Origin: a candidate division FCPU426 bacterium
GTDB lineage: Bacteria; Oederibacteriota; Muellerivitia; Muellerivitales; Muellerivitaceae
Reading direction: 5' to 3'
NCBI GenBank assembly: GCA_023249615.1
Contig: JAHFCG010000001.1
Coordinates: 2,257 to 66,256 of the forward strand
DNA length: 64,000 bases
Shown: positions 18,323 through 54,023 of the stretch, in pieces
How positions within the stretch are numbered: position 1 is the first letter of the stretch
How the letters are laid out: the number at the start of each line of letters is the position of its first letter
Notes under the pieces: model-generated
Told to the model about the DNA's origin: nothing
The model's input: only the letters and a program-made list of their open reading frames with translations
The model's database searches: none
Translations under genes and position numbers: made by a program

Positions 18323-18411
18323 TAAAGTCTAGAGGTATTATGCAACAAGATGGGAAAGACCAAGGGGGAAAAAAACAAAACCTATTAAAGGCTTTATTTT
18401 TTAAAGAATTA

Positions 18412-19443: not shown

Positions 19444-19690
19444 GGAGGATAACCTCTTTTAAACAAGGGTGGGAAAACGTTGAGTAGTTTAACAAAAGGC
19501 CTAATCTTTGCAAAGTTTAAATTGGTCGAACAAACATTGAGAAAAACCAACCATTGCATTAAAGCAAACCGGTTTCATTTAAACCTGCTAACGACTTTGG
19601 GCGCCAAAACTTTAATAAACCCCGGCACGCTTAAAACGTTAAAGCCTTAACGGCCGATTAAACACCTTTCTTTTTTCGCTTTCATGCTTT

Positions 19691-34754: not shown

Positions 34755-35873
34755 CTACTCGGGGAGAACCGCCTTATTGGGTCCCACTTCCTGGGCCTGT
34801 TGCAAAAGTTTTTCAGCGTTTTCAAAAAGTAAAAGGTGGTTGCCCGCGTGTTTGGGATAGGTGGAGGCGCTGATATTTAAAAATACGGGCGGGCCATCCC
34901 CCATGATTTGCTTGTAAAACTTGAAAATTCTTTTTGCGATGATCCCGTAGGTCTGGTTGTCCGTATCCGGAAGGATGATGCCGTACCTGTTTTTATCCAG
35001 CCTGCAAATGATGTCAACCCGCCTCAGACTTTTATACAAGATATCCGCGACCTGGGTGGCGGTAGTGTTTTCAATCAGTTTTGCGGTCACGGGATCAATG
35101 GGTGTAACGCTTAAAAACAACAAACTGACGTGGCGGGAATAACGCTTGGCCCGTTCCACCTCGATGGCGAGGCACTCCTCGAAATAGTCCTTGTTAAATA
35201 ACCGGGTGACTTCGTCCACCAAAACCACCGGCCTTTTGTGATCATTGTCCTCTTTCTCCGGCCTGACGGTTGTGACGGGCGCGGAGACGGGTGGGTTTTC
35301 AGCTTTATTTTTGGGCCTTTCCTCAAAAGCAGGGGGAATTCCAGCCGGGATTCCTGCTTTCGGGTCCTCCACCTTCCCGGATTTTTTGATCAAATGGACC
35401 GCTTTTAATAAACTTTCCTGCCATGGTTTCCAAATATTGGTTAAATCAGTCAATAGTTCCTGTTCATAGGGACGTGAATCCTGGTGGGCGCAGCCCAGTA
35501 AAAGAAAATCCTGTTTGGGAAGATTAAAAACAAGGAAAATCCCGCTGAAGGGTTTTTGAATCCGCAGGGATCCTGACTTGTTGAAAACGGGTTTTCCGGT
35601 CATATCCAGAAAAACTTTTAACGGAAGTTTCGAAAGGGTAACCCGTTCCTCTACCCCCAACCGGTAAAAACATGTATCCATGATTTCTTCTTTACCCTCA
35701 AAGGCTAGCGGAGCGGGGGATTCTTCCGGCGTATTGGAACAGGCGATAAAAACACAATCAAATTTGAAGTTTTGAAGGATTTCCTTGCAACAAGCCGCAA
35801 GGGAGGCCTGGGTGGGGCGGCTTTGCCTGCATTGGTCGATTAATTTTTGAATGAGAAGAGTTTCGGAAATCAC
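34755..35873 (-). CDS. Sensor-domain (GAF-like) protein with a degenerate GGDEF domain, probably catalytically inactive
   Basis: The C-terminal half aligns with the GGDEF fold (DEVTRLFNKDYFEECLAIEVERAKRY...), but the signature is NRYGI instead of GG(D/E)EF. Confidence 0.6.
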   Translation of the reverse strand: MISETLLIQKLIDQCRQSRPTQASLAACCKEILQNFKFDCVFIACSNTPEESPAPLAFEGKEEIMDTCFYRLGVEERVTLSKLPLKVFLDMTGKPVFNKSGSLRIQKPFSGIFLVFNLPKQDFLLLGCAHQDSRPYEQELLTDLTNIWKPWQESLLKAVHLIKKSGKVEDPKAGIPAGIPPAFEERPKNKAENPPVSAPVTTVRPEKEDNDHKRPVVLVDEVTRLFNKDYFEECLAIEVERAKRYSRHVSLLFLSVTPIDPVTAKLIENTTATQVADILYKSLRRVDIICRLDKNRYGIILPDTDNQTYGIIAKRIFKFYKQIMGDGPPVFLNISASTYPKHAGNHLLLFENAEKLLQQAQEVGPNKAVLPE

Positions 35874-36038: not shown

Positions 36039-36653
36039 TTACTTGACCTTTATCGCCTGAAAAATGGCCCTTAACGAAACCGCGTCCGGTACCAGCAGAA
36101 AGTAACCCCCAATAACCTCATGAGCGTCAATGAATTTGGTTTCTATGCAAATTACCTTGGTGTCGTCATCCATCCCCTGGGTTAGGGAGGTCAATAGGGC
36201 CCCCGCCATGTCAAAAACCAGGGTTGGAACTGAAATAAGAAGAAGCATTCCGAGAAATTCATTCAAGGCGCTTAAATAGGCGCCGGTCAAAATATTCCCA
36301 GCCTCTTTAATGGCCGAATGACCCATCTCGGTAAGAATCTTGCTGGTTCCGACTTCCTGTTTAAGAAGCATATCCGCCAGGTGAAGGGCCGAATCCCGGG
36401 GAAAAAGCAAAACGATTTTTCCGGTTGCGTCGCCAAGGATGGCCAAGGTCAACCCGGCTACCAACGTGTTGGGGTCGCCCACAAGACGTGGAACCTCCGA
36501 AAGGGAAAGAATATTGGCCTTGGGAACAGTAATATGGATTTTTTTTCCGAGAAGCTGGGACAAAGCCGTGGCGCCATGGCCGGCGCCGATGTTGCCCACT
36601 TCCTTCAGGGCATCCAATTGGCTGGGCGTCAACTGGTCGAGATTAAGAAGCAT
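36039..36653 (-). CDS. cheC: CheC/CheX-family CheY-P phosphatase
   Basis: LDALKEVGNIGAGHGATALSQLLGKKI... duplicated CheC repeats. Confidence 0.8.
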   Translation of the reverse strand: MLLNLDQLTPSQLDALKEVGNIGAGHGATALSQLLGKKIHITVPKANILSLSEVPRLVGDPNTLVAGLTLAILGDATGKIVLLFPRDSALHLADMLLKQEVGTSKILTEMGHSAIKEAGNILTGAYLSALNEFLGMLLLISVPTLVFDMAGALLTSLTQGMDDDTKVICIETKFIDAHEVIGGYFLLVPDAVSLRAIFQAIKVK

Positions 36654-36677
36654 TCGAAAAATCCTTTTTCCAAAATC

Positions 36678-38894
36678 CTATAAACCCTCATGGGTCCCCA
36701 GGGGTATGATCCCCTGGTGCTCTTCCTGGAAACGTCTTTCCTTTAAATCCTCAATCAAACTATTGACGTCCAGAATCAACGCTATCTTACCACTCCCAAG
36801 GATGGTTGCGCCCGAAAAACCTCGGATGCCCTTCAGAAGCCTGTCGAGGGATTTTATGGCGATTTCCTGCTGGCCGATCACTTCGTCCACCAAAATTCCA
36901 ACACGAGACTCCCCCACTTCCGCCACCAGGACCGTCTCCAAACCCGTTTCAAGGGCCGGCCCGGGGGGAATAGCCATCTCAAGAAGTTCCTGAAGATGGT
37001 AAAGCGGAATGACTTCATCCCGCAAAATAAAAGTCTCCTGTTGTTGAATAATCCTTTTCTCATCCGTGTGGATATCCACGGTTTCAATGATGTTGACCAC
37101 GGGGATAACAAAAACCTCCTCGTTACATTTGACCAGGAGTCCCTTGATGATGGCGAGGGTCAAGGGAAAACGTAAAATAAAGGTGGTTCCTAATCCCTTC
37201 CGGCTTTGAATCCGGAAAGTTCCGCCAAGCGCCTCCACCTTCGTTTTGGCGACGTCCACTCCAACCCCCCGGCCTGAAACCTCGGTCGCGTTATCAATGG
37301 TGGAAAAACCCGGCAAGGCAATCAGGCGGACGGCCTCCTCGTCGGTTAATCGTATGGCTTCCTCGCGCGTAATCAGACCTTTCATAACCGCCTTCTTTCG
37401 GACCAATTCAGGATCAACTCCCCTTCCGTTGTCGATTACCGACAGGATAACGAAATGTCTTTCCCTCTTGGCCTGAAGCCGGATGGTTCCCGCGGGGTCC
37501 TTCCCTTCCTTTTCCCGTTCCTCCGGGATTTCAATCCCGTGGTCAATCGCGTTTCGGAGCAAATGAACCAGTGGCTCACTCATTTCCTCGATAACCGTCC
37601 TGTCCAATTCCACCTCAGCCCCGTCCATTTCAAGGTCCACCTGTTTATGAAGTGATTTTGCCAGGTCCCTGACCATCCGGGGAAAACGGTCAAAAATTTG
37701 CTTAACAGGCATGAGGCGGACCTTCATGATTTCGTCCTGAAGTTCATCGGTAATGTGATGAAGTTGAAAAAGGGGATCCAACAATTCCTTTAATTCTTTC
37801 TGGTGTACCACCTGTTCAAATCGGATTTTTGAGATGACCAATTCCTGAACCAAGGCCATTAACTTGTCGAGTTTAGAAGTGTGAACACGAACCGTGGGCA
37901 GGATAAAAGTCCTTTCGTCGGACCCCGTGGTTCTGGAAACCTGGGTTGAACCCTTTGAATCCGTCGGTTCCTCGGATTCCGCGTCGGTTTCCGTTTTGCC
38001 GAAATCCGACTCACGGCGGCCGGGACTCCGTTCGGGCAATACCTTAAAAGGATTTGATTTTGGAGTTTCCGATTCCTTCTTTTTAAAAACAGCCTCATGG
38101 TCCTCGTCGGGGCTAAAGGAATCGATTTGAACTTTTTCAACCTCGCTTATCCCCGTCAAGGTCTTTTTGATTTTTTCCTCAGGACTGTCGGTAACGACGA
38201 CCAGAAAAAAGCCCCTCTCGAAATGCCCCTTTTCTATTTCCTGCGGCGCCGGGTGGCTCTTTACGATTTCGCCAAGTTCATTAATGGCTTTTAAAATCAT
38301 GAAGGAGCGGACCTCCTTAAAGGCGCAATCCCTTTCCAATTCCACCATGATTTTGAATACCGAAAAACCGTTCATACGGGCCTGGGAAATCACATCCCTT
38401 TCCTCGTCCGTAAAGGGCAGGGCCACTTCCTGAACCACCTCCACCACGGGCTCCACAGGCGAAGCCGCTCCCCGGAGGGCCTCCGAGGCCTCCTGAAGGC
38501 TGGTGAGGGTGGCTTTTAAATCATCTTCCTCCAGCGAGTCATTGGACGAAAGGATGTTGACCCACTTCTCCAGTTGGTCCAGACAAATGAAAAGAGCGTC
38601 AACCAGTTGGGGCGTCAGGGGTTTGACCCCTGAACGAATGGGTTCCAGCACCGTTTCCATTTGGTGGGTGAGCTGTGCCATGGGTTCATATCCCATGGTG
38701 GCCGACATGCCCTTGATGGTGTGCGCGGCGCGGAATATCTCGTTGATGGACTCCCCGTGTCCCGGATCTTTTTCAAGAACCACGAGGGAATTGTTGAGGT
38801 TCGCGAGGTATTCCCTCGCCTCAGTCAGGAAAATTTCCTTATAGTCACTGCTTTTCACGATGGCTCCAGGGAAAAGGGAAAATGGCAATGGCAT
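36678..38894 (-). CDS. cheA: Chemotaxis histidine kinase CheA (HPt, dimerisation, HATPase and CheW-like domains)
   Basis: HTIKGMSATMGYE HPt motif, HATPase_c G-boxes, and a C-terminal CheW-like domain. Confidence 0.9.
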   Translation of the reverse strand: MPLPFSLFPGAIVKSSDYKEIFLTEAREYLANLNNSLVVLEKDPGHGESINEIFRAAHTIKGMSATMGYEPMAQLTHQMETVLEPIRSGVKPLTPQLVDALFICLDQLEKWVNILSSNDSLEEDDLKATLTSLQEASEALRGAASPVEPVVEVVQEVALPFTDEERDVISQARMNGFSVFKIMVELERDCAFKEVRSFMILKAINELGEIVKSHPAPQEIEKGHFERGFFLVVVTDSPEEKIKKTLTGISEVEKVQIDSFSPDEDHEAVFKKKESETPKSNPFKVLPERSPGRRESDFGKTETDAESEEPTDSKGSTQVSRTTGSDERTFILPTVRVHTSKLDKLMALVQELVISKIRFEQVVHQKELKELLDPLFQLHHITDELQDEIMKVRLMPVKQIFDRFPRMVRDLAKSLHKQVDLEMDGAEVELDRTVIEEMSEPLVHLLRNAIDHGIEIPEEREKEGKDPAGTIRLQAKRERHFVILSVIDNGRGVDPELVRKKAVMKGLITREEAIRLTDEEAVRLIALPGFSTIDNATEVSGRGVGVDVAKTKVEALGGTFRIQSRKGLGTTFILRFPLTLAIIKGLLVKCNEEVFVIPVVNIIETVDIHTDEKRIIQQQETFILRDEVIPLYHLQELLEMAIPPGPALETGLETVLVAEVGESRVGILVDEVIGQQEIAIKSLDRLLKGIRGFSGATILGSGKIALILDVNSLIEDLKERRFQEEHQGIIPLGTHEGL

Positions 38895-38953
38895 TTTAAC
38901 CTAATTTGGGGAAAATTGATTTGGTTGGATGTTTAAAGCGGTGTTTGTGATTA

Positions 38954-40048
38954 CTATCGGCGGTTTAAAAGCGCGTTTATTTCCTGGGCCATTTGGGACA
39001 GGGGTACCTGCCGGTCCACCATTCCCGAATCCACCGCGGCCTTGGGCATCCCGTAAACCACGCAGCTGCCGGCGTCCTGGGCGAACGTTTTTCCCCCCAC
39101 GGCATGAATATCCTTCAAACCCGCGGTTCCGTCCCTGCCCATTCCGGTCAGGATAACTCCCATGCATTGCTTGCCCGCTGTTTTGGCTACAGAGCTCATC
39201 ATGATATCGGCGGAGGGTTTTACGCCCAGCCTTGGGGGGTGATCATTAAAACCAAACTTGTAATGCCCGGCACCTCCCTCAAGAACCAGGTGAAGGCCCG
39301 CCGGGGCGACATAAGCGTGGCCCCCCATGAGATACTCTCCATCCTCCGCCTCTGAAACCTCCAGGCGGCTGACCTCACCCAGGCGCCTGGCCAGGGCTTT
39401 CGTGAAACCCACCGAAATATGCTGAACAATCACGAAAGCGACGCTCGAACTCCGGTTTAAATTGGAAAACAATTCATTGAGCGCCCTGGGCCCTCCGGTT
39501 GAGGAGGCCACCGCCACGATAAAAGTGGCCGGTTTATCCCTTTCAACCGTTTCTGGTTCGGCAGGCTTGACATTTTTTTTTACCGTGGATTCGGCGGAGA
39601 CTCCTTCCAATTCCTTGTTTCGGCGGGGCTTGCAAAGGGAGGCCATTTTTATTTTCTCGACCAATTCTCCCTGGATTGCCTTGGCGTTTTCCAAAACGCG
39701 CCCTGCCGGTTTACCGATACAATCGATGGCTCCCAGTTCGAGGGCCCTGATGGTTGTTTCGGTTCCCTTGCCTGTATGGCTGGAGATCATGACAACGGGA
39801 GTTGGCGAATCCTTCATTATTTTTTCGAGGGCGGCCAACCCGTCCATCTTGGGCATTTCCACGTCGAGCGTGATGACGTCCGGTTTCAACTTTTTGGCTT
39901 TTTCGACCGCCTCGAGCCCGTTCTGGGCGGTGTCCAAGACGGTGATTTCCCCATTGGTGGTATTCAGGATTTCAGACAGGATTTTTCTCATGAAAAAAGA
40001 ATCGTCGACGATAAGAACACGGATGGTTTTGGATTTTTCAGCCGTCAT
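38954..40048 (-). CDS. cheB: Chemotaxis methylesterase CheB (REC + CheB_methylest)
   Basis: IRVLIVDDSFFMRK receiver followed by a methylesterase domain (GASTGG...). Confidence 0.9.
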   Translation of the reverse strand: MTAEKSKTIRVLIVDDSFFMRKILSEILNTTNGEITVLDTAQNGLEAVEKAKKLKPDVITLDVEMPKMDGLAALEKIMKDSPTPVVMISSHTGKGTETTIRALELGAIDCIGKPAGRVLENAKAIQGELVEKIKMASLCKPRRNKELEGVSAESTVKKNVKPAEPETVERDKPATFIVAVASSTGGPRALNELFSNLNRSSSVAFVIVQHISVGFTKALARRLGEVSRLEVSEAEDGEYLMGGHAYVAPAGLHLVLEGGAGHYKFGFNDHPPRLGVKPSADIMMSSVAKTAGKQCMGVILTGMGRDGTAGLKDIHAVGGKTFAQDAGSCVVYGMPKAAVDSGMVDRQVPLSQMAQEINALLNRR

Positions 40049-40104
40049 GGAGGTTCCCGGTCAAATTACGGTTTGTCTTAAAAAGCTCAAAACGACTTTT
40101 GCCG

Positions 40105-40184
40105 CCGATCAAATCCGATACACGCCGATAAATCAAAATTATTTTTTACAGTTTGTAGTAATCGGCGTCCATCGGAAGTTATCG
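40105..40184. repeat. Palindromic element made of three 10-bp-phased CCGAT units, an AT-rich spacer, and three 10-bp-phased ATCGG units
   Basis: gCCGCCGATcaaaTCCGATacacGCCGATaaatc...gtaATCGGcgtccATCGGaagttATCGGCGGttg. Confidence 0.6.
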
Positions 40185-40207
40185 GCGGTTGCTTTTTTTC
40201 TTAACTT

Positions 40208-40618
40208 TCAAGCCCCGACGACCCGCTTCAAGGCTTCCTGGACGCGGGGCGGCTGGAAAGGTTTGATGATAAAGTCCCGAGCACCGGCCTGAATGGAATC
40301 AATAACCATGCTTTGCTGGCCCATGGCGCTTACCATGACGATTTTAGCCTCCGGGTCAAAGGCCCTGATTTCCCTAACGGCTTCAATGCCGTCCAATTCC
40401 GGCATGACAATATCCATGGTGACCAAATCAGGTTTTAATTTTTTATATAATTCCACGGCTTCCCGACCATTGGAAGCTTCCCCTGCCAATTCATAGGGTT
40501 CCCTTAAAATAATCCCCTTTAAGATGGTCCTCATGAAGGAGGAGTCGTCGCAAAATAAAACTTTGATGGCCAAGGCTTTTTCCTTATTTGGGGATTGCGG
40601 CTTCCGAATCCACGACAA
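40208..40618 (-). CDS. cheY: CheY-like single-domain response regulator
   Basis: VLFCDDSSFMR...DLVTMDIVMPELDGIEA. Confidence 0.85.
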   Translation of the reverse strand: MSWIRKPQSPNKEKALAIKVLFCDDSSFMRTILKGIILREPYELAGEASNGREAVELYKKLKPDLVTMDIVMPELDGIEAVREIRAFDPEAKIVMVSAMGQQSMVIDSIQAGARDFIIKPFQPPRVQEALKRVVGA

Positions 40619-41105
40619 CCCTTAGTCCCTCAAGATTAAAGGTCTTTTCCATGTTAAACAAAATAATTAACCGGTCCCGTACCGTCAATAACCCCTTCAC
40701 GAAATCAAGGGTGATATTCAGGACGGGCTGGGTGGCCTTCTCGATCGCGGTGGGGGAAACCCGTAAAACCTCCACCACCTTGTCCACGAGGAGCCCAAGC
40801 ATTTGGTCCTTGGTTTCCACGACCAGGATCCGGGTTTCCGGGGTCCTTTCCACCAAAGGCATTTCAAACCGTTTTTTAAGGTCCAAAACCGGAAAAATGC
40901 GGCCCCGGAGGTTGATTATCCCCTCCAGGTATTTTGGCGCCTTCGGCATGAGCGTAATTTCTGAAACCCGGATAATTTCCCGCACTTCCTGGATTTCCAG
41001 GGCAAGTTCACAACCCGAAAGGGTAAAAACCACAAGTTGAATCTCGGCCTTGTCCTTTGCCTGGGAGTTAAAAATTTCGGCAGTCGAAACGCTCATTCCA
41101 TTCAC
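40584..41105 (-). CDS. cheW: CheW coupling protein
   Basis: VVFTLSGCELALEIQEVREI... CheW fold, ~170 aa. Confidence 0.85.
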   Translation of the reverse strand: MNGMSVSTAEIFNSQAKDKAEIQLVVFTLSGCELALEIQEVREIIRVSEITLMPKAPKYLEGIINLRGRIFPVLDLKKRFEMPLVERTPETRILVVETKDQMLGLLVDKVVEVLRVSPTAIEKATQPVLNITLDFVKGLLTVRDRLIILFNMEKTFNLEGLRVVVDSEAAIPK

Positions 41106-41117
41106 CTCTTGGGTCGC

Positions 41118-41603
41118 TTAAATCACCAGATTGGGTTGATTCAATTTTCTTATTTCCACCTTTCCATCCGAAAGGGAGAAAAACATCGTCCTGCCCTGGG
41201 ACCCGCCAACCTCTTCACCTTTTATCCGAATCCCCTTTTCCCGCAGTATTTCCCGAATGGCCGAGGCATTCCTCATACCGATCGGAACAGCCTGCTGGGC
41301 GATGGAAACAAACATATTGGCCCCGCCGACCAATTTGGCCTCCACGGAGGTAAAATCGGCCCCTTCTTTCTTCATCCCGGCAAAAAGCGCGATCATGGCG
41401 GTGTCAGCGTACTTTCCAGGCACTGAAACCTGGGAATGCATTCGGCTGGAAGGTAGCATGATATGGGCAAGCCCGCCGATTTTTTTTACCCGGTCATAGA
41501 GGGTCACCGCTACGCAGGAACCAAGTCCGTAAGCCGCCAATCTTCCAGGATCCGTCGCCGTTTTGATTTCCGCGATTCCCACCACAAAATCATTTTCAGC
41601 CAT
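41118..41603 (-). CDS. cheD: Chemoreceptor glutamine deamidase CheD
   Basis: AYGLGSCVAVTLYDRVKKIGGLAHIMLP... conserved CheD catalytic region. Confidence 0.85.
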   Translation of the reverse strand: MAENDFVVGIAEIKTATDPGRLAAYGLGSCVAVTLYDRVKKIGGLAHIMLPSSRMHSQVSVPGKYADTAMIALFAGMKKEGADFTSVEAKLVGGANMFVSIAQQAVPIGMRNASAIREILREKGIRIKGEEVGGSQGRTMFFSLSDGKVEIRKLNQPNLVI

Positions 41604-42234
41604 CGCTGGGAAGTCCCAGTGATTTTGAGAATGCCGCGAAAAACTTTTTCAGGGAATCCGCCTCCGGCAAAAGGAAAAAACTGCCGGTCAATTGCTTGTC
41701 ATCCTCCAAAAACTGGGTTTCGATCACGATGGCCACTTCCTCCCGTTGCTCGAGTTCCACCAGGACTGTATCCAAAATCGCCTGGGCCATGTCAATCGCA
41801 AGGCTCGGAACCCCGTGAATGAGCTGAAGGTTGATAAAACGGAAGAGGGCGCTCAAGTAAGAGCCGGTCAGAATGCTTCCCAACTCCTTGATGGCTGATT
41901 GGCCCAGCTCGGAAAGGTTATTGGGATCTTCTTCCTTCCTGCCGATCAGCATCGCGGAAAGCTCCGGCAGTCGTTCCAGGGGAAAAAAAATGAGGGCAAT
42001 GCCGAGCATCTCCCCATAAACCGGCATATGAACCGCGGCGACATTTTTCTCAATTCCACCCAAGAAACCGGCGATGGCGTCAGCGGGAAGGACAAGCACC
42101 TTCGTGACCGACATATCAACTCTTTTGCCCACCATTTGGGATAGGGCGGTCGCGGCGTTTCCGGCCCCGATATTTCCGATTTCCCTCAGGGCGTCCAGCT
42201 GAAATTCGGTAAAGGGTTTTGAATCATTGGCCAT
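41596..42234 (-). CDS. cheC: Second CheC-family phosphatase
   Basis: LDALREIGNIGAGNAATALSQMVGKRV... Confidence 0.8.
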   Translation of the reverse strand: MANDSKPFTEFQLDALREIGNIGAGNAATALSQMVGKRVDMSVTKVLVLPADAIAGFLGGIEKNVAAVHMPVYGEMLGIALIFFPLERLPELSAMLIGRKEEDPNNLSELGQSAIKELGSILTGSYLSALFRFINLQLIHGVPSLAIDMAQAILDTVLVELEQREEVAIVIETQFLEDDKQLTGSFFLLPEADSLKKFFAAFSKSLGLPSDG

Positions 42235-42301
42235 AGGATCTGCCTTTCGGGGTTCCGTGTTCGGGTCGAGACGATTGAAGACTGATCAACACTGGGGGGG
42301 T

Positions 42302-42664
42302 TCAGCCCAGAACTTTTTTAACGGCCTCAAGAACATTGGAGGGTTGAAAGGGTTTTACGATGAAATCTTTCGCTCCCGCCTGGATGGCTTCAACCACCAG
42401 GGATTGCTGGCCCATGGAACTGCACATCAAAATTTTGGCGGCAGGATTCCCCTTCACAATTTCACGGACGGCGTCAATACCGCCCATTTCAGGCATGATA
42501 ATGTCCATGATCACGAGGTCGGGCTTCAGGGTTTTATACTGCTCAACGGCTTTGGCCCCGTTTTCGGCCTCCCCGATCACCTCATAACCCGAACCCACCA
42601 GAATGTTTTTCAACATCATCCGCATGAATGAAGCGTCATCCACCAGCATTACGCGATGAGCCAC
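42302..42664 (-). CDS. cheY: CheY-like response regulator
   Basis: VMLVDDASFMR...DLVIMDIIMPEMGGIDA. Confidence 0.85.
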   Translation of the reverse strand: MAHRVMLVDDASFMRMMLKNILVGSGYEVIGEAENGAKAVEQYKTLKPDLVIMDIIMPEMGGIDAVREIVKGNPAAKILMCSSMGQQSLVVEAIQAGAKDFIVKPFQPSNVLEAVKKVLG

Positions 42665-42758
42665 GACTTCCTCCCCAAACTAAATTTTGAATTTTTAATT
42701 CTTAATTTTTAACAGGCGACCCAATCAAGAATTTAAAATTAAACATTAACAATAGCTT

Positions 42759-43097
42759 TTATAAGGCGTTCTCACCCCGCTCGCCAGTTCGGACCCGGAT
42801 CGCGTCCTCCAGGGGCATTATAAAAAATTTCCCGTCGCCCACCCGCCCCGTACGGACGGTTTCCAGCAAAAGCTCCACCACCTTTTCAATCTCATCGTCG
42901 GGAAGGGCGATTTCAAGGCGTGTTCTCGGCTGGTATTGTACCTTATAATCGGCGCCCTTCACCGCCTCCACCTGGACTTTCTGATACCCGTAGCCGGAAC
43001 CATCCGAAATGGTCACGCCCCGAACACCCGCCTCCCACAGTACTTTTTTAACCTGATCTATTTTTTTGGGGGTAATCACGCAGACAAGAAGTTTCAT
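42759..43097 (-). CDS. PII (GlnB/GlnK-like) signal-transduction protein
   Basis: 112 aa; MKLLVCVITPKK...GYGYQKV...KGADY (T-loop with Tyr)...GRVGDGKFFIMPLEDAIRVRTGE matches the PII fold end to end. Confidence 0.75.
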   Translation of the reverse strand: MKLLVCVITPKKIDQVKKVLWEAGVRGVTISDGSGYGYQKVQVEAVKGADYKVQYQPRTRLEIALPDDEIEKVVELLLETVRTGRVGDGKFFIMPLEDAIRVRTGERGENAL

Positions 43098-43104
43098 GGA
43101 ATTC

Positions 43105-45357
43105 CTATTTAATCAGTTTGGATTGGCTCGCGCTCGGGGAAATCTGAAGTTCTTTTTTCCAGGCCTGAATCTGCTGGATCACATCCACCGCCTGAAGAGC
43201 CTTTTCCTCGTCGGGATTCGGGGAATCCAGGTATTTTTGGAATTCCTTGATTGCCTCATCCCACCAGCTTTTATACCTGTAAACCTGGGCTAGATGGAAA
43301 TGAATTTCATTTAAATTTGGCTCCAGTTCCTGACTTTTTTTCAGTTCTACCAGGGCCTCGTCCCACCATTGACGGCTGATATAAACCCTTCCTAATTGAA
43401 GGTGAGCCTCGGGATAAAGGGGATCGCACGAGACGGCCCTTGCCAGGACCTTTACCGCGTCGTCCAGGGACTGGGTAAGAAGATAAACCTCGCCCAACCG
43501 GGTAAGCGCCTCCCTGTTTTTGGGGCTGAGACGGATGGCTTCCTGGAATTCCTGGATTGCTTCGGGGAATTGGCCCGTGCTTTTATAAAGGTTGCCCAGG
43601 TTAAAATGGAGGCTTGGGTTTTCCGGATCCGCCATGATTTGTTTGATCAGGACTTCCGAGGCCTCGGACAGGACATTTTTTTTCTTTAAAGCGACGGCAA
43701 GGTTGTTTTGGGCCGTCTTATAGTCCGGTTCGATATCAACGGCTTTTTTGAAGGCCTCAATCGCCTTTTCGTATTGGCTTTGTTTGAAATAAACAACCCC
43801 CAGGTTGTTGTAAGCCTTGGCGTATTTGGGATTAAGTTGAATGGCCTGTTGATAATGTTGAATCGCCTCCGGAACCAACCCCGCGTTTTTGTAGGCGACC
43901 CCGAGGCTGTTATGGATAATCGGGTTTTTGGGGTCAAATTCCATTGCCTTTTTGTATTCCGCGATGGCTTCCTCAAACCGGCCCTTGTCGGCGAAGGCAA
44001 GGCCCAAATAAGTCAGCGCCTCGGCGCTGGAGGCGATGGAGACATTCAATTCGATGGCCTGGGAAATTTCACGAATGGCTTCGTCGTAAAGGTTGACCTT
44101 GTAATAGTAAACCCCCAGGTAGTAATGGGCCTCGGCGTTTTGGGGATCAATTTCCAGGGCCTGCCGAACCTCCCTGGTCGCCTTTTCACTTTCCCCCATT
44201 TTGAAATAAGTGACCCCCAATTCAAAATGGGCCATGCTGGACCCGGGGACCAGTTCAATGGCCTTTGTAAATTGGACGGCGGCCTGATCGGTTCGATTAA
44301 GCTCACGCAGGGCGATTCCGGCCTGAATATAATTTTCGACGTGCCCGGGAGCCAATTCAATGGCTTTCCGGGAGGCGGCCAAAGCGTCCTCGAACATCCC
44401 CTTCAACAGATACAGCTCGCCCACCGCGCGAAAAAGCTTTTCCTCGTTCGGCATGGCCTCAATGGCCCTCCGGTATTCCCGGAGAGCCTCCTCAAGCAGG
44501 CCTTTTCCCTTGTAAGCTGCGGCCAAACTCAGATAAGTTTCCGCGTTGGAAGTTCCGGCTGGTTGAGCCGCGACCTTTTCGGCCACCTTTTCTTCCATGG
44601 TTTTCGGCCGTTCGATCGCCAAAAGCGCCTGGGCCCCCTGGCCGAAATTGGGGTTTAAATCGACCGCCTTTTTGAATTCCCTCTCGGCTTCCTCCAGCAT
44701 GTTTTTATCCCCATAAACGAAACTCAAATTGTAATGGGCAATGGCATAATCCGGGTTCAGGGAAATGGCCTTTTTAAATTCGATCAACGCCTCATTGATC
44801 ATGGCCTTTTTGTAATAAACCTCGCCAAGATTGTTGTGGAGGTCGGCGAAATAGGGATTTTTGTCAATGGCCTTTCGAAACTCGACCATAGCTTGGTCAA
44901 AATTTCCCATGGCCTTGTGGGCTATCCCCAGGTAATTTCGGGCGAAGGGATGGTCCTGATTCAGCAGGAGGGTTTTCTGGTATTCCTCCACTGCCTTTTC
45001 GTATTGCCCGGTGTAACGATACGCGTTGGCCAGGTTATAAAAGGCCTCGGCATCCTGGGGAAACATCTGGACTGATTTTTTGTAGGCCTCGATGGAACGG
45101 TCATAAAGCCCCGTGTGACGGTTGACGGATTTCAGGTTTTCCTGTGCCTGGGCGTTTTCCGGCTCGACTTCCAGGGCCGTCTTGAATTCCTTGATGGCCT
45201 CCGCGTACATTCCCTTGGAATAATAAAAAACCCCAAGGTTGTTATGGGTGGAGGCATCGCCCTGGTCCGAGCCGTGGGCCATTTCACGGATGGTTTTCGT
45301 TTCAGGGCGGGAAGGCATAATCAACCTCGGAGGAAGGCAATGATAGGGTTTTTTCAT
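43105..45357 (-). CDS. Large TPR-repeat protein (~750 aa)
   Basis: About 20 consecutive 34-residue TPR units (AxxxYxxAlxlxP pattern). Confidence 0.8.
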   Translation of the reverse strand: MKKPYHCLPPRLIMPSRPETKTIREMAHGSDQGDASTHNNLGVFYYSKGMYAEAIKEFKTALEVEPENAQAQENLKSVNRHTGLYDRSIEAYKKSVQMFPQDAEAFYNLANAYRYTGQYEKAVEEYQKTLLLNQDHPFARNYLGIAHKAMGNFDQAMVEFRKAIDKNPYFADLHNNLGEVYYKKAMINEALIEFKKAISLNPDYAIAHYNLSFVYGDKNMLEEAEREFKKAVDLNPNFGQGAQALLAIERPKTMEEKVAEKVAAQPAGTSNAETYLSLAAAYKGKGLLEEALREYRRAIEAMPNEEKLFRAVGELYLLKGMFEDALAASRKAIELAPGHVENYIQAGIALRELNRTDQAAVQFTKAIELVPGSSMAHFELGVTYFKMGESEKATREVRQALEIDPQNAEAHYYLGVYYYKVNLYDEAIREISQAIELNVSIASSAEALTYLGLAFADKGRFEEAIAEYKKAMEFDPKNPIIHNSLGVAYKNAGLVPEAIQHYQQAIQLNPKYAKAYNNLGVVYFKQSQYEKAIEAFKKAVDIEPDYKTAQNNLAVALKKKNVLSEASEVLIKQIMADPENPSLHFNLGNLYKSTGQFPEAIQEFQEAIRLSPKNREALTRLGEVYLLTQSLDDAVKVLARAVSCDPLYPEAHLQLGRVYISRQWWDEALVELKKSQELEPNLNEIHFHLAQVYRYKSWWDEAIKEFQKYLDSPNPDEEKALQAVDVIQQIQAWKKELQISPSASQSKLIK

Positions 45358-45940
45358 CCACTAGCTTATCCGGGTTCAAAACGGAGTAAATATCCTCCTT
45401 GATTTTTCCGAGACAATAATACAAATCGTTCTTTTTCCCGAAGAGGTAGGGGGGGCAGGGCTCAATCTGGTCAATCTTCAAACGGGCCACCTCCCTGACC
45501 TGGTCCACCCACAAAATAAAGGGAAGCCCCTTTTTTTCCAGGACGATAAACCAAGTTCCCTTGCTCGCGGGGACGGCTCCCAACCCAAGGAATTTCCGGA
45601 AGGATAAAACCGGAAAAACTTTTCCCCTTAAAATCAACTCACCCTCCCAAAAATCCTGGGGCTGGGCCAGGGGACGCAAAATGGAATGTTTCAAAACCTC
45701 CCGAACCCGGTAGGTTTCGATTCCATAAAGCTCATTTTCCACCTGAAAGGTCAAAACCATCATTCCCTGCATCACCTGGAGGATATCCCGTTCCTCCACA
45801 AAACCGAGGCGCACGAGAACCTTGCCAATGGGCTCGTGGTTTTTTTTCTGCTCCCCCAAGGCCACCTGTATCTGGCGCGAGGTTATTTTTCCAGCCTGGC
45901 GGAGAAGTTCTCCCAGGGATTTTTCCTGCGGTTTCATCAT
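45302..45940 (-). CDS. MshEN (T2SSE_N-like c-di-GMP-binding) domain fused to a CheW-like domain
   Basis: N-terminal SLGELLRQAGKITSRQIQVALGEQ fits the MshEN 24-mer RLGxxLLxxGLLxxxxLxxxLxxQ. The C-terminal half is CheW-like (LTFQVENELYGIETYRVREV). Confidence 0.6.
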   Translation of the reverse strand: MMKPQEKSLGELLRQAGKITSRQIQVALGEQKKNHEPIGKVLVRLGFVEERDILQVMQGMMVLTFQVENELYGIETYRVREVLKHSILRPLAQPQDFWEGELILRGKVFPVLSFRKFLGLGAVPASKGTWFIVLEKKGLPFILWVDQVREVARLKIDQIEPCPPYLFGKKNDLYYCLGKIKEDIYSVLNPDKLVDEKTLSLPSSEVDYAFPP

Positions 45941-47121
45941 ACGACGGTGCTCCCCTTCATGATTTTAAGGTTGTTTTTCAAAATTTCATTGGTCGGGTCC
46001 AAGGCCAGGGACTTTTCCCAATGGTCAAGGGCCATTTGTTTTTCACCCTTTTTCATATATATATTTCCCAATTTTGAATGGGCGTCCGCGTGGGTCGGAT
46101 TAAGGCTTAACAGTTTTTCATATTCCACGATCGCCTCATCAAAGTGGCCCAATTTGTAGTTCAGGTTTCCCAAATTATCCAGGATCAGGACATCGTTTGG
46201 GTTGATTAATTTCGCTGCCTTATATTCCTCCAGGGCCTTTTGAATGTCCCCTTGTTTATCATAAATATAACCCAAAACGTTGTGAACGCTGGCGTCATTT
46301 GGGTTAATTTCCATCACTTTTCGGTACATCTTGATCGCGTCCTCATGAAGTCCGCGGCCCGCGTAAATCATCCCCAGCTTGAGATAAACCTCGGCGTTGT
46401 TGGGATTTTTTTCGCGGGCCTGCTTTAAAACCTCGATCGCCTTGTCATATTGCCCCAGTGACATAAAGGCGTGTCCCATTTTCAAATGGGCTTCCGGTTC
46501 ATGGGGGTTGAGTTTCAGCGCCTGCTGGTATTGAACCAGGGCTTCCGGGTACATCCCGCGTTTGGAATAGGCGTTCCCCAGAATGGCGTAAACGGCCGCA
46601 TGCCTCGGGTTGGCGATTAGGGCCTTTTCGTAGGCTGAGATGGCCTCGTCCAAATGACCGGATTGTTCGCAGGCATATCCCATCTTGAAATAGATTTCCG
46701 CGTTGCTCGGATTTATGGCGGTGTAATTCTTGTATTGTTCAACGGCCTCCTGGTAGGCCCCCATTTTCGCGTAAACATTCCCCAGGTTGTTAAAGAGGCC
46801 GGCGTCGCCCGGATTAAGTTCGATTGATTTTTTGAATTCCAAAACAGCATCGGGGTATTTCCCCTGAATCTCCAAAAGGAGCCCCAATTTACAATGCGCG
46901 TTAAGGTTCATGGGGTTTATTTCGAGGGACTTCCGGTAATAGGATTCCGCTTCGGGATAATTTCCCATATTGGTGCAAAGGGCTCCCAAATGAAACAATA
47001 TTTCTCCGTCATTGGGGGTTAATTCGAGGGCTTTTTTAAACTCAACCAGCGCGTCCTCATACCGCTTGGAAAGCGTAAAAGCCGTCCCGAGATTGATATG
47101 ATCCTGCGCCTTATCCATCAC
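45937..47121 (-). CDS. TPR-repeat protein (~394 aa)
   Basis: About 11 TPR units. Confidence 0.8.
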   Translation of the reverse strand: MMDKAQDHINLGTAFTLSKRYEDALVEFKKALELTPNDGEILFHLGALCTNMGNYPEAESYYRKSLEINPMNLNAHCKLGLLLEIQGKYPDAVLEFKKSIELNPGDAGLFNNLGNVYAKMGAYQEAVEQYKNYTAINPSNAEIYFKMGYACEQSGHLDEAISAYEKALIANPRHAAVYAILGNAYSKRGMYPEALVQYQQALKLNPHEPEAHLKMGHAFMSLGQYDKAIEVLKQAREKNPNNAEVYLKLGMIYAGRGLHEDAIKMYRKVMEINPNDASVHNVLGYIYDKQGDIQKALEEYKAAKLINPNDVLILDNLGNLNYKLGHFDEAIVEYEKLLSLNPTHADAHSKLGNIYMKKGEKQMALDHWEKSLALDPTNEILKNNLKIMKGSTVV

Positions 47122-47980
47122 TCACCTTTTCCTCTTTGTTTGTTTCCCAAAAATTTTCGGTTTTTTCCAAAAGTCTGTAAATTCTGTTCCGAACATCAAC
47201 ACATTCATAAAATTTTCTGGAAGGTCCCAATAATGTTTCCGTCAAACCCAAAATCAAAAACCCTCCCGCGGCCAAGGCGCCGGCGAAATTTTTATAGATT
47301 TTTTGCTGCAGGGGCGCCGTCAGATAGATCAAAAGGTTCCGGCAAAAAATCAACTGAAACCCGGACAACTCATCCACCCATTCCGACAACAAATCGTGGG
47401 CCCTGAAATGAACATGCTTTTTAAGATCCGCGACAACCCTGGCTCTGGAACCCTCCACGTAAAACCAGCGGGTGACCTGAGCCTTGGAAAGCTTTTTGAG
47501 CGCCTCGACCGGATATTCACCTTTTTCAGCCGTTCGAATGCTGGCCATGTCAATATCCGTGGCGAAAATCTCAAAATCAAATCCAGGCTGGGAAAAGGAG
47601 CACTCCTTCAAAATCATGGCTACGGAATAGGGTTCCTCCCCCGTACTGCACCCCGCGCACCAAATTTTCAGTTTAATCCCGGGATTCACGGGAAAACCCG
47701 GTAAAATATTTTGCTTAATCGCCTGGTAAACATTTGGGTCACGAAAAAATTCTGTGACGTGGATGGTCAGCCGATCCAATAGAAGCGCGGGTTCCTGCCT
47801 GTTATTTTGCAAAACCCGAAGATAATCAAGGTAAGTTTTTGTTTCCATGGCCCGCATCCGGACAGCGACACGGCGTTTGATGTAATTTGGCTTATACTGA
47901 TGGCCGTCAAAACCCTTTGTCTTCAAAAGAAGGGCCAGGATTTTTTGAAAATTCGGATCCTCTTCTTTCCCAGCGTTCAT
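47111..47980 (-). CDS. cheR: Chemotaxis methyltransferase CheR
   Basis: ...FFRDPNVYQ...IWCAGCSTGEEPYSVAMIL... SAM-binding core. Confidence 0.85.
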   Translation of the reverse strand: MNAGKEEDPNFQKILALLLKTKGFDGHQYKPNYIKRRVAVRMRAMETKTYLDYLRVLQNNRQEPALLLDRLTIHVTEFFRDPNVYQAIKQNILPGFPVNPGIKLKIWCAGCSTGEEPYSVAMILKECSFSQPGFDFEIFATDIDMASIRTAEKGEYPVEALKKLSKAQVTRWFYVEGSRARVVADLKKHVHFRAHDLLSEWVDELSGFQLIFCRNLLIYLTAPLQQKIYKNFAGALAAGGFLILGLTETLLGPSRKFYECVDVRNRIYRLLEKTENFWETNKEEKVSDG

Positions 47981-49413: not shown

Positions 49414-51717
49414 TTAACTTATCTTTGAAAATATCCCCGTGAGGGTGTTCTTTTTAATTTTGGCTTCCTCTATTTTCTTTTGCGCGCGTTCATTCGCCGG
49501 ATCGATTTCCAGAATTTTGCTCCAGAGCCTGATGGCCTGGTCCATGTCATTTTGATCAAAGAATGTTTTTCCCTCGGCGTAATACTTTTCGGATTCCTGT
49601 TGAATGACAGCCTTCAGGGCCCCCAGTTGGCGGACGACTTCAGGATGCCCCGGTGAAAGCCGCAGCACCTTCGTGTATTCCTTTTGGGCGGTCGAGAGAT
49701 CGCCGGACTGGTGGGCGTTCCAACCCTCCTGAAAAATTTCATTAATCTGAAGTTCGTGCATTTGTGTTGTTTTCTGAAGATAGGCGTTCAGGTAGGCATT
49801 GCCATCCGCCTTCGATATGGCCTTTTTAAAAAACTCCATCGCGGTTTGAAAATCGCTTCGGACATAACTCCGGACCCCTTGTTCAAAAAGATTTAAAATG
49901 GGTTCCTTTTCCGGATTGGCTTCCAAACCCTCGACCCCGAAGGAAAGTAGCTTGGCGATGCCCTGTTGCAGGTAACGGGAAACATCCTCCAAGTCGGAAT
50001 TTAAATCATAAGCCTTGTTCCAGGCCACGAGGGCCCCCAATAAATCCCCAGCCTTGTACAACTCGATGGCGGACTGGTTCAAGGAATCGGCCCTGACTTT
50101 TGCCTGTTCTTTTTGGATCGCGGTTTTAAGATCCCTCTGTAAAACCCGGGCCTGTTCGTTTTGGGGATCAAGGGTAAGGGCCTGGTTGACCTGCGCGAGG
50201 GCGTTGGCAAGGTCCGACTGCTGCTGATAGGTTACGGCGTTTTGATAAAACTCCCGGGCCTTGGTCCGGTTATCCAGTTCTTCCTGAATCGCCTTGATGT
50301 AGGCTTTCGCCTGTTTGTTCTCGGGATCCGTTTCCAGTGTTTTTTGGAACTCTAGAATCGCGGCCTGGTGTTTTCCTTCCCGATACATTTGAAGGGCGGT
50401 TTTAATACCCGAGGAGGCATCCTTCTTCTTTTCCGTTTTATCGTCCATTTCCCGCAACCGGGCCATGAGGGTGTTAGCCTCTTTGTGATCCGGGATTTCC
50501 TGCAATACCCGTTTCAATTCACCCCGCGCGTCATCGAAGCGGTTTTTCGCGTAATATTCCTGCGCGCGTTTCATCCACCCCGAGACCCGGTCTTTTTGTT
50601 GCGCGTTTTCCATTTGGGAAATGAGGGATTGCGCCGAGGCCCGGGAGGTGGAAATTCCCTTGAGGCCAAGGTCAATTTCACTTGGCGAAGTCGCTTGTTC
50701 CATGGCGCTTTCCTTCGTGATAAAACCGCCCCGAACCAGTTGAATAAGGGATTGGTCGAAGGTTTGCATCCCGTATTGGCTTTGTCCTTCAGCGATAAAC
50801 CCCCGAATATGGCTAATTTTTCCCTCGGCGATAAGCGATTTGATGGTGGGGGTCGCGATCATGATTTCCGCCGCCGGAACCACCCCGACACCGTCAGCCT
50901 TGCTGACAAGGCGTTGGGAAATGACCGCCCGGATGGTGTTGGACAACTGGATCCGGATCTGGTTTTGTTGGGCCGGGGGGAAAAAATCAAGAATACGCTC
51001 CATGGTTTGAACGGTATCCATCGTATGGAGGGTTGATAAAACCAGATGCCCTGTTTCGGCCGCGGAGATGGCCGCGGAAACCGTTTCGACATCCCGCATT
51101 TCACCAATAAGAATAATGTCAGGATCCTGGCGAAGAACGTATTTAAGGGCGGACCTGAAACTTTCAGTATCAAGCCCCACCTCCCGCTGGGTAACACTGG
51201 ATTTTTTATCCTTGTGCACAAACTCAATGGGATCTTCAACGGTAACAATGTGAGCCGCCCGGTTGAGATTCATTTCATTGATCAGGGCGGCCAGGGTGGT
51301 GGATTTACCGGAGCCGGTGATTCCCGTGACCAGGATCAGACCCCGCTGTTCCATCGCGATTTGTTTCAAAACCGCGGTGGGCATGTTGATGTCCTCAATC
51401 CGGGGAATGTTTTGGGGAATCTGCCTCATGATGATTTCCGGCAATCCCCTTTGCCACATGGCGTTGGTCCGGAACCGGGCCAAACCCTCAACGGCGTAGG
51501 CCAGGTCAACCTCGCGGTGTTCCTCAAAAAAAATTCTTTGTTGTTTTTCGTCCATCAGGTAGGAAGCCACTTCGGCCAATTCCTGGGGAGAAAGGGGGGT
51601 TTCGCCTTGCGGGGTCAAATCACCGTCAATTCGAAACAGGGGGGGAGCGCCGGCCTTCATATGAACGTCGGAGGCCTTTTTTTCAACCATGGAACTGAGA
51701 ATTTGTTGAAGGTCCAT
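49414..51717 (-). CDS. pilT: PilT-family type IV pilus retraction-type ATPase fused to a ~420 aa C-terminal TPR region
   Basis: N-terminal MDLQQILSSMVEKKASDVHMKAGAPPLFRIDGDL (PilT N-terminus), Walker A LILVTGITGSGKSTTLAALI, followed by TPR repeats to the C-terminus. Confidence 0.75.
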   Translation of the reverse strand: MDLQQILSSMVEKKASDVHMKAGAPPLFRIDGDLTPQGETPLSPQELAEVASYLMDEKQQRIFFEEHREVDLAYAVEGLARFRTNAMWQRGLPEIIMRQIPQNIPRIEDINMPTAVLKQIAMEQRGLILVTGITGSGKSTTLAALINEMNLNRAAHIVTVEDPIEFVHKDKKSSVTQREVGLDTESFRSALKYVLRQDPDIILIGEMRDVETVSAAISAAETGHLVLSTLHTMDTVQTMERILDFFPPAQQNQIRIQLSNTIRAVISQRLVSKADGVGVVPAAEIMIATPTIKSLIAEGKISHIRGFIAEGQSQYGMQTFDQSLIQLVRGGFITKESAMEQATSPSEIDLGLKGISTSRASAQSLISQMENAQQKDRVSGWMKRAQEYYAKNRFDDARGELKRVLQEIPDHKEANTLMARLREMDDKTEKKKDASSGIKTALQMYREGKHQAAILEFQKTLETDPENKQAKAYIKAIQEELDNRTKAREFYQNAVTYQQQSDLANALAQVNQALTLDPQNEQARVLQRDLKTAIQKEQAKVRADSLNQSAIELYKAGDLLGALVAWNKAYDLNSDLEDVSRYLQQGIAKLLSFGVEGLEANPEKEPILNLFEQGVRSYVRSDFQTAMEFFKKAISKADGNAYLNAYLQKTTQMHELQINEIFQEGWNAHQSGDLSTAQKEYTKVLRLSPGHPEVVRQLGALKAVIQQESEKYYAEGKTFFDQNDMDQAIRLWSKILEIDPANERAQKKIEEAKIKKNTLTGIFSKIS

Positions 51718-53993: not shown

Positions 53994-54023
53994 ATAAACC
54001 CACCCTTCACGCTTCGCTTCCCT

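Follow-up and report, generated by a model that had tools for sequence, protein, structure and literature searches.

By what route could cyclic di-GMP (c-di-GMP), the sessile-versus-motile messenger, enter the core of a chemosensory array? To our knowledge, only a few indirect routes lead from c-di-GMP to these arrays, through PilZ domains that act on CheR, CheX, the motor or a receptor, and an MshEN_N domain inside CheA has been characterised biochemically, not functionally. The question is raised here by one gene on a DNA stretch of 64,000 nucleotides (nt), called the window in what follows (contig JAHFCG010000001.1 of assembly GCA_023249615.1), from a bacterium of candidate division FCPU426, a widespread and uncultured phylum of soil and peat. 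A preliminary description, made from the sequence alone, had recognised in this gene a c-di-GMP-binding motif resembling that of MshEN, fused to a CheW domain. We find full support, in profile, sequence and predicted structure, for the fusion of an MshEN_N domain to CheW, and we incline slightly towards a model in which the protein would be a second, specialised CheW scaffold, responsive to c-di-GMP, in a conserved chemosensory-like pathway of FCPU426.

Gene structure and tandem motifs

The gene and the parts of its product are the following.

45302..45940, minus strand: MshEN_N–CheW fusion gene, 212 residues, from the list of open reading frames (ORFs), stop codon included
45761..45928, minus strand: MshEN_N four-helix domain, residues 5-60, delimited by NF053729, the alignment with 5HTL, AlphaFold2, Foldseek and conservation
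45848-45919, minus strand: motif 1, residues 8-31, SLGELLRQAGKITSRQIQVALGEQ, from the translation
45761-45832, minus strand: motif 2, residues 37-60, PIGKVLVRLGFVEERDILQVMQGM, from the translation
45353..45757, minus strand: CheW domain, residues 62-196, by PF01584, Foldseek and the alignment with E. coli CheW
45305..45352, minus strand: C-terminal tail, residues 197-212, ending EVDYAFPP, with a low predicted local distance difference test score (pLDDT) and an ending conserved in part of the family

The gene starts with an ATG preceded, 9 nt to its 5' side, by the Shine-Dalgarno-like sequence AAGGGGAG, and this ATG overlaps the stop codon of the upstream gene, which encodes a 394-residue tetratricopeptide repeat (TPR) protein, as ATGA. 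An identical protein (100%, P0001) is present on a public contig of 72.5 kb. The peptide quoted in the preliminary description is motif 1; a second motif, which that description had not seen, follows after a spacer of exactly five residues (KKNHE), and the fusion contains a complete two-motif MshEN_N unit of 53 residues (residues 8-60), which strengthens what had first been observed. Such a unit consists of two tandem motifs of 24 residues separated by a spacer of about five (Wang et al. 2016, PMC5013675). The fit to the 24-residue consensus, as it had first been claimed, holds at the level of the family profile, whose curated cutoff is exceeded, and fails at single positions: in motif 1, S replaces the expected R at position 1, and positions 7 and 11 are R and K; in motif 2, position 1 is P, and M replaces the expected Q at position 24.

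Homology and predicted fold of the MshEN_N domain

The NCBIfam model NF053729, whose curated cutoff is 38, matches residues 9-57 with 55.5 bits (E=3.5e-15 for the full protein), the 53-residue peptide of the fusion alone scores 59.8 bits, and the profile of the fusion family reaches 5HTL at E=1.5e-6. Compared with PDB sequences by phmmer, the N-terminal 64 residues align without a gap on residues 7-59 of VcMshE (5HTL) with 32-35% identity, and they also align to all three GSPII domains of Thermus PilF. In motif 1, S8, L9, G10, I24, L28 and Q31 of the fusion correspond to R9, L10, G11, L25, L29 and Q32 of VcMshE; in motif 2, P37, I38, G39, I53, M57 and M60 correspond to R38, L39, G40, L54, L58 and Q61, a register that is unambiguous as judged by the sequence alignment.

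The AlphaFold2 model, built from a 43-sequence alignment of the family, has a mean pLDDT of 84.8 and a predicted TM-score (pTM) of 0.77 over the whole protein. Its helices lie at residues 9-15, 21-34, 38-45 and 50-58 with pLDDT of ~89-94, and strand β1 of the CheW domain starts at residue 60, right after helix 4 and without a linker. The structure prediction advised in the preliminary description thus returned a confident four-helix bundle (pLDDT ~90) and not a disordered N-terminus. Searched with Foldseek, the predicted bundle superposes on c-di-GMP-bound MshE (5HTL) with a root-mean-square deviation (rmsd) of 1.6-1.7 Å over 52-56 columns, and on PilF GSPII-B (8PDK) with 1.1 Å over 48 columns and 40% identity.

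The other search that had been suggested, with Pfam PF05157 (T2SSE_N), gave no match in the fusion even at E≤10. This result was to be expected and does not refute the assignment, because the Pfam model mostly covers the MshEN_C/T2SSE_N1 part; the fusion has the MshEN_N subdomain alone and belongs to the MshEN_N-only class. A match to DUF2949 was rejected as weak (E=0.014, below the cutoff of that model), and a hidden Markov model (HMM) of the N-domain, run against all six frames, found no second copy of it in the window.

Since public annotation and precomputed Pfam results give CheW alone, one might prefer to see in the N-terminal extension a chance resemblance or a mis-called start, the true protein being an ordinary CheW. 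The strength of the NF053729 match, the good Shine-Dalgarno sequence combined with the ATGA overlap at the called start, and the first 60 residues themselves, which are the best-conserved part of about 200 homologs and are confidently folded in the model, all contradict this explanation. We give it a negligible probability, and the profile match, the conservation and the predicted fold have already effectively refuted it.

The CheW domain and the C-terminal tail

The remainder of the protein is CheW-like, as had been described: Pfam PF01584 matches residues 62-196 with E=4.6e-21 and 75.3 bits against a gathering threshold of 23.5, over model positions 2-136 of 138. In the Foldseek search this C-terminal part matches CheW structures with E-values from 9e-14 to ~1e-9 and target-normalised TM-scores of 0.68-0.87, among them 2QDL, 6S1K_C, 8C5V_E and 2CH4 (E from 1e-13 to 1e-10, target-normalised TM-scores of 0.80-0.87, rmsd ~2-3 Å). 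A gapless alignment to E. coli CheW pairs E81 with E38, R105 with R62, G100 with G57 and G106 with G63; in the 43-sequence alignment E81 and G100 do not vary, and R105 reaches a conservation of at least 90%. The E38/R62 pair, G57 and G63 of E. coli CheW are conserved scaffold residues. Because the equivalents of all four are kept, the CheW domain of the fusion, which shares 28% identity with the neighbouring canonical CheW, looks from its sequence like a working scaffold paralog.

The tail has a pLDDT below 50 over residues 203-212, and in 68 of the 116 full-length members of the family it ends with E-V-x-[HY]-A-x-P-x. C-terminal peptides are frequent ligands of TPR domains. Since two TPR genes flank the fusion, one may speculate that its C-terminal peptide could tether it to the flanking TPR proteins.

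Family and distribution

A search of 5.8 billion clustered proteins gave 110 clusters at 50-100% identity to the fusion, nearly all of 209-214 residues, the names given being CheW or chemotaxis signal transduction protein. Averaged over all pairs of the 43-sequence alignment, identity reaches 0.81 in the N-domain and falls to 0.55 in the CheW domain and 0.27 in the tail. At least five single-stretch full-length fusions at 30-38% identity were added by an exhaustive HMMER search, which covered 1.84 billion representatives; the best 150 matches were listed, most of them multi-CheW proteins, and the counts of fusions are lower bounds. With a profile extended by the five distant fusions, 199 fusions were obtained at E≤1e-20. 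Among the species-representative genomes of GTDB, the named matches are metagenome-assembled genomes of candidate division FCPU426; further matches fall in bins labelled "bacterium" and in three bins labelled proteobacterial, and one locus (L027) represents a low-GC sister lineage carrying the fusion. All the fusions found come from uncultured bacteria (FCPU426 and relatives), and no cultured organism appears among them, the exhaustive search covering its 150 best matches. In some 200 public proteins that bear the plain label CheW, annotation based on Pfam overlooks a second-messenger domain.

Ligand-contact residues and possible c-di-GMP binding

Could this bundle hold c-di-GMP? In VcMshE, each mutation of a hydrophobic contact costs more than 10-fold in affinity, binding is abolished by G11L and by G40I, the loss is 5-fold or less when R9, D12 or Q32 is substituted, and the backbone NH of the Gly at position 3 contacts O6/N7 of guanine, which gives guanine specificity (PMC5013675). 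In the MshEN consensus the Arg at position 1, extended to R/K/L, stacks on guanine, and the Gln at position 24 hydrogen-bonds the ribose and the phosphate. Residues 1-65 of VcMshE, that is MshEN_N alone, bind c-di-GMP with a dissociation constant (KD) of 0.35 µM (PMC5013675), and the missing MshEN_C would therefore be no obstacle to binding by the fusion.

Conservation at these positions was counted over 123 full-length fusions. The two glycines are kept wherever aligned (G10 in 121/121, G39 in 123/123), as are the hydrophobic positions 2, 17 and 21 of both motifs (L9, I24 and L28; I38, I53 and M57), which are L, I, V, F or M in every fusion; within motif 1, L9, G10 and L28 are invariant and I24 is I, L or V. 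Q31, at position 24 of motif 1, is conserved in 122 of the 123, G59 of motif 2 in all of them and G46 in 119, and a K or R almost always precedes position 1 of motif 1, at position 0.

Several observations nevertheless weigh against binding. Peptides of equal length, taken from proteins whose binding is known, gave the following scores with NF053729.

VcMshE: binder, 84.1 bits
PilF GSPII-B: binder, 6 nM, 55.9 bits
PilF GSPII-C: binder, 51.9 bits
PilF GSPII-A: non-binder (PMC11731258), 54.6 bits

The match to NF053729 thus fails to separate binders from non-binders: since GSPII-A passes the cutoff, it proves homology, not function, and the score was dropped as evidence of ligand binding after this control. 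Three of the 12 ligand-contact positions differ from the canonical motif (R9→S, R38→P and Q61→M), and the fusions share these departures: position 1 of motif 1 is S, T or A in 121 of 123 and never R, K or L, position 1 of motif 2 is P in 117 instead of the consensus Arg, and position 24 of motif 2 is M, L, V or I and never Q. The small residue at position 1 of motif 1 is without precedent among tested binders, so that one guanine would be without its usual stacking lid. In addition, R and K stand at the core positions 7 and 11 of motif 1, and neither motif of the fusion matches the relaxed pattern with which Wang et al. searched. The loss of the motif-II Gln (Q61) figures among the eight changes that are listed for XpsE, a non-binder.

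A bundle derived from MshEN_N that has lost nucleotide binding and now serves for docking, like the N-domain of XpsE/GspE or like GSPII-A, would account for such observations; the fusion would then be a paralog of CheW that carries a recruitment domain, which might dock it, for example, to the two co-translated TPR proteins or to another array component. To the passage of GSPII-A over the same cutoff, the absence in all 123 fusions of the position-1 Arg of both motifs and of the terminal Gln of motif 2, and the presence of R38 as well as Q61 among the changes listed for XpsE, this explanation can add the constant position of the fusion between two TPR genes with overlapping reading frames and a set of invariant polar surface residues (Q5, K7, E11, Q15, K18, Q23, K40, D52 and Q55) that fits a protein interface too. 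A pure docking role would not, however, need the exact ligand-contact pattern, and both glycines and the six hydrophobic contacts are kept in relatives at 30-40% identity. The non-binder XpsE carries G11V, G40L, L29R and L54H besides other changes, and the sequence of GSPII-A has Ala at the motif-II Gly; these destructive changes, a bulky residue in place of Gly, a charged one in place of Leu and Ala in place of the motif-II Gly, are absent from the fusion family. The c-di-GMP proteins encoded nearby also fit a nucleotide sensor better, and we regard the loss of binding, although it is the main rival of our model, as unlikely.

Changes of the kind seen at the three polar contacts are known to be tolerated or to have mild effects. 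PilF GSPII-B, with K and L at position 1, binds c-di-GMP at 6 nM, and GSPII-C, with P at position 1 of motif II, binds about as well as MshE (PMC11731258); the sequence of GSPII-C has K at position 11 of motif I, the same as the fusion. The MshEN_N of Aeromonas CheA, in which motif 1 begins with M, has a KD of 2.6 µM (PMC5013675). In the AlphaFold2 model of the fusion, motifs 1 and 2 start exactly at helices 1 and 3. At the N-cap and N1 positions of helices, Ser/Thr and Pro are classical residues. One reading of the model is that S/T and Pro may fix the helix starts and pre-form the free backbone NH groups for the guanine edge. Taken at the level of residues, the sequence picture for ligand binding is favourable, not clean, and we judge it rather probable that the MshEN_N bundle of the fusion binds c-di-GMP.

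The ligand could also be another one. The three changed side-chain contacts are altered alike in nearly all fusions, which suggests selection for a modified site, and VcMshEN binds cGAMP weakly (PMC5013675), so that the fold can hold this molecule; the variant motif would then mark an MshEN_N subclass for another cyclic dinucleotide (3'3'-cGAMP) or another stoichiometry. The guanine-specifying backbone NH at both conserved glycines is unchanged, which argues for two guanines, and the neighbours are of c-di-GMP type (GGDEF I-site, GGEEF and HD-GYP), no cGAS/DncV-like gene having been seen in the window. Altered specificity appears to us highly improbable, and c-di-GMP is the ligand retained in what follows.

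Gene neighbourhood

Every gene between 34.7 and 56.5 kb lies on the minus strand. In the order of transcription come two TMEM260-like (DUF2723) TPR membrane proteins, a PilT-type ATPase-TPR protein, two small envelope proteins, CheR, the 394-residue TPR protein, the fusion, a TPR protein of ~750 residues, P-II, CheY, CheC, CheD, the canonical CheW, a REC protein, CheB, CheA, CheC/CheX and a GGDEF-domain protein.

49414-51717, minus strand: PilT-type ATPase with a C-terminal TPR/coiled-coil part of ~420 residues, syntenic with the che cluster
47111..47980, minus strand: CheR methyltransferase, by PF01739 and PF03705, in 29/29 loci
45937..47121, minus strand: 394-residue all-TPR protein, by Pfam TPR families, directly upstream of the fusion in 29/29 loci
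43105..45357, minus strand: all-TPR protein of ~740-750 residues, by Pfam TPR families, overlapping the 3' end of the fusion
36039..43097, minus strand: rest of the che cluster, by Pfam (P-II, CheY, CheC, CheD, CheW, REC, CheB, CheA and CheC/CheX)
42759-43097, minus strand: P-II family protein (PF00543), directly after the large TPR gene
40584-41105, minus strand: canonical CheW, by Pfam
36678-38894, minus strand: CheA, by Pfam

The block formed by CheR, TPR, fusion and TPR was found by tblastn in 29 of 29 related loci, and the remaining che genes follow in the same order wherever the contig extends, three distant loci included. The ~750-residue TPR gene directly follows the fusion wherever the contig reaches, in distant relatives as well. 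Its mechanically called start at 45357 overlaps the fusion by 56 nt; an in-frame ATG at 45318 gives an overlap of 17 nt, the same as in two related loci (L001 and L003), and is probably the true start. CheR in turn overlaps the start of the 394-residue TPR gene by 11 nt. CheR–TPR fusions occur in WspC and FrzF-type systems, and by analogy the pair looks like such a fusion that has been split.

In all 27 loci of sufficient length, the P-II protein keeps its position; a regulator of this kind, which binds nucleotides or 2-oxoglutarate, is unusual within a chemosensory operon. The cluster encodes the receptor modifiers CheR, CheB and CheD, yet no gene for a methyl-accepting chemotaxis protein (MCP) was found in the 64-kb window, two unannotated proteins of 135 and 324 residues having been rejected as MCPs on account of their membrane-anchored or secreted, not MCP-like, character. 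No MshEN motif was found in the P2-P3 linker of the CheA of the cluster, which is a low-complexity linker alone.

Synteny of the PilT-type ATPase–TPR gene with the che cluster extends to 19 loci, one of them in a distant relative (L029), and its product may be an output or a partner of the chemosensory pathway. This T2SSE gene could not be taken for a PilB that lacks its N-domain, a possibility ruled out by its PilT-type N-terminus, and no N-terminal MshEN or GSPII domain was found in it. Upstream of it lie two adjacent large membrane proteins (51804-56471, minus strand). In the window one of them is TMEM260-like/DUF2723, a putative protein O-mannosyltransferase, and the other has TPR repeats alone; in related loci the same two positions carry TMEM260-like and TPR matches in varying combination. 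The TMEM260-like neighbours hint at a link of the pathway to envelope glycosylation.

c-di-GMP proteins around the cluster

The gene that closes the cluster in FCPU426 encodes a GGDEF protein of a particular kind.

34755..35873, minus strand: degenerate GGDEF protein with an I-site, by PF00990, at the 3' end of the che cluster in FCPU426

It has DKNRY in place of GGDEF, has lost the metal-site region and carries RRVD (RxxD) exactly five residues upstream, after an N-terminal domain of ~215 residues. Across 77 orthologs R284 and D287 are invariant, and the GGDEF pentapeptide is degenerate in all and variable. Judged by this sequence pattern, the protein is probably a c-di-GMP receptor that acts through its I-site only; some public records annotate its orthologs as diguanylate cyclases. 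In a distant relative (L028, ~35% identical), two intact GAF-GGEEF cyclases and a REC-GAF-HD-GYP phosphodiesterase flank the cluster (L028 positions 1-2919 and 18191-19690), and no CheA follows CheB on the 20-kb stretch available. The degenerate GGDEF protein and the flanking genes of L028 tie the system to c-di-GMP independently of the fusion.

Other features of the window

Elsewhere in the window, an ORF of 1998 residues (1883-7879, minus strand) has no Pfam match at E≤1e-5. A single ORF (14382-15716, minus strand) joins LpxC to a FabA/FabZ-like dehydratase domain in a lipid A/fatty-acid fusion and, together with LptF/LptG at 10443-12700, indicates a diderm envelope.

Proposed model

The domains, the predicted fold, the conservation, the gene context and the CheW signature form the established ground of the model we propose, while the binding of c-di-GMP, the coupling mechanism and the direction of the effect are what we infer. 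The four-helix bundle of MshEN_N would bind one c-di-GMP, each motif holding one guanine. Where the helices begin, the backbone NH groups of G10/E11 and G39/K40 would bind the edge of the base, the hydrophobic platform made of L9, I24, L28, I38, I53 and M57 would carry it, and Q31 would contact the ribose-phosphate. In MshE and PilF, the rearrangement caused by the ligand is the unwinding of a helical turn and the reorientation of a subdomain (PMC5013675, PMC11731258). In the fusion, a rearrangement of the bundle would be passed rigidly to the CheW domain, because helix 4 runs straight into β1 without a linker. This CheW would then engage differently with CheA-P5, the canonical CheW of the array rings, receptors or the two translationally coupled TPR proteins, and the output of the kinase would be set by the cellular level of c-di-GMP.

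The tighter constraint on the N-domain than on the CheW domain (0.81 versus 0.55) and the location of the latter in a cluster with CheA and a canonical CheW support this model. That the c-di-GMP state is fed into the CheA complex, as the preliminary description had put forward, is plausible, and a biochemical precedent exists in the MshEN_N of Aeromonas CheA.

A bolder construction can be made of the same locus, in which CheR, TPR, the MshEN_N–CheW fusion, TPR and P-II would together form a receptor-independent device: c-di-GMP would be the signal, the CheW paralog the sensor, and the TPR proteins, possibly gripping the C-terminal E-V-x-[HY]-A-x-P peptide, would replace the MCP. The signature made of K/R-S-L-G, Pro and a missing Gln would then define a new MshEN_N subclass with a modified mode of ligand binding, and the co-conserved PilT-like ATPase–TPR protein and the I-site-only GGDEF protein would receive the output. 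We consider this construction improbable.

If the model of a c-di-GMP-responsive CheW scaffold is true, the messenger acts within the rings that determine the cooperativity of the kinase and form the structural core of the array. A sensor-bearing CheW would be a small soluble protein, easily expressed and tested in vitro. The finding also opens a first functional way into the signalling of candidate division FCPU426. Should binding fail, the family would be a natural example of MshEN positions that are dispensable for the fold and required for the ligand.

Comparison with known systems

The MshEN_N of VcMshE (5HTL, PMC5013675) has the same tandem 24-residue motifs, five-residue spacer, four-helix bundle and glycine and hydrophobic contacts as the fusion; VcMshE goes on with MshEN_C/T2SSE_N1 and an ATPase, whereas in the fusion the bundle is joined directly to CheW. 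In the CheA of Aeromonas veronii (EKB11881, KD 2.6 µM, PMC5013675 Supplementary Tables 4 and 6), MshEN_N is likewise part of a core component of the kinase complex and motif 1 also lacks the position-1 Arg (M-L-G), but there the module stands between P2 and P3 of the kinase and not on the adaptor CheW. In Geobacter lovleyi, (MshEN_N)2–CheX (Glov_2742, PMC5013675 Supplementary Table 4) has MshEN_N alone, N-terminal to a small chemotaxis protein, as in the fusion; its partner is a CheY-P phosphatase preceded by two copies, whereas the fusion has one copy and a scaffold. [quoted passage not shown] They differ from it in being parts of a pilus ATPase, with a C-terminal subdomain that reinforces the ligand contacts; they have no small residue at position 1 of motif I and have not lost the motif-II Gln, and in GSPII-B motif II is shorter by one residue.

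PilZ-based inputs of c-di-GMP to chemotaxis are provided by MapZ acting on CheR1, by the PilZ-containing receptor Tlp1 and by YcgR. A PilZ protein is also at work in V. cholerae, through PlzC and CheX (PMC12799141). Here too the level of a second messenger modulates the chemosensory output; the PilZ routes use another fold, mostly on a separate effector, and target a methyltransferase, a phosphatase, the motor or a receptor, in contrast to the CheW scaffold of the fusion. In Wsp-type chemosensory systems, which belong to those with alternative cellular functions, c-di-GMP is made by an active REC-GGDEF protein, WspR, and an MCP of their own, WspA, is encoded. The FCPU426 cluster resembles them by its two CheW paralogs, a CheR with TPR repeats, CheB, CheA and a GGDEF protein at its end; it differs by a GGDEF domain that is degenerate with the I-site alone, by the absence of an MCP from the cluster, and by c-di-GMP being apparently an input.

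The architectures of Wang et al. (PMC5013675) include HPT–P2–MshEN_N–dimerisation–HATPase–CheW and (MshEN_N)2–CheX, not MshEN_N–CheW, and no description of the latter was found in full-text literature searches, whose scope left subscription journals outside, or in a survey of CheW-like architectures. The entry of c-di-GMP into the chemotaxis core by way of MshEN_N is already established biochemically and, given the precedent of Aeromonas CheA, the fusion is less novel than the preliminary description had implied. What is new is the partner domain, a scaffold and not a kinase or a phosphatase, the distinct and strictly conserved signature of the motifs, and the conserved, unusual gene neighbourhood in an unstudied phylum.

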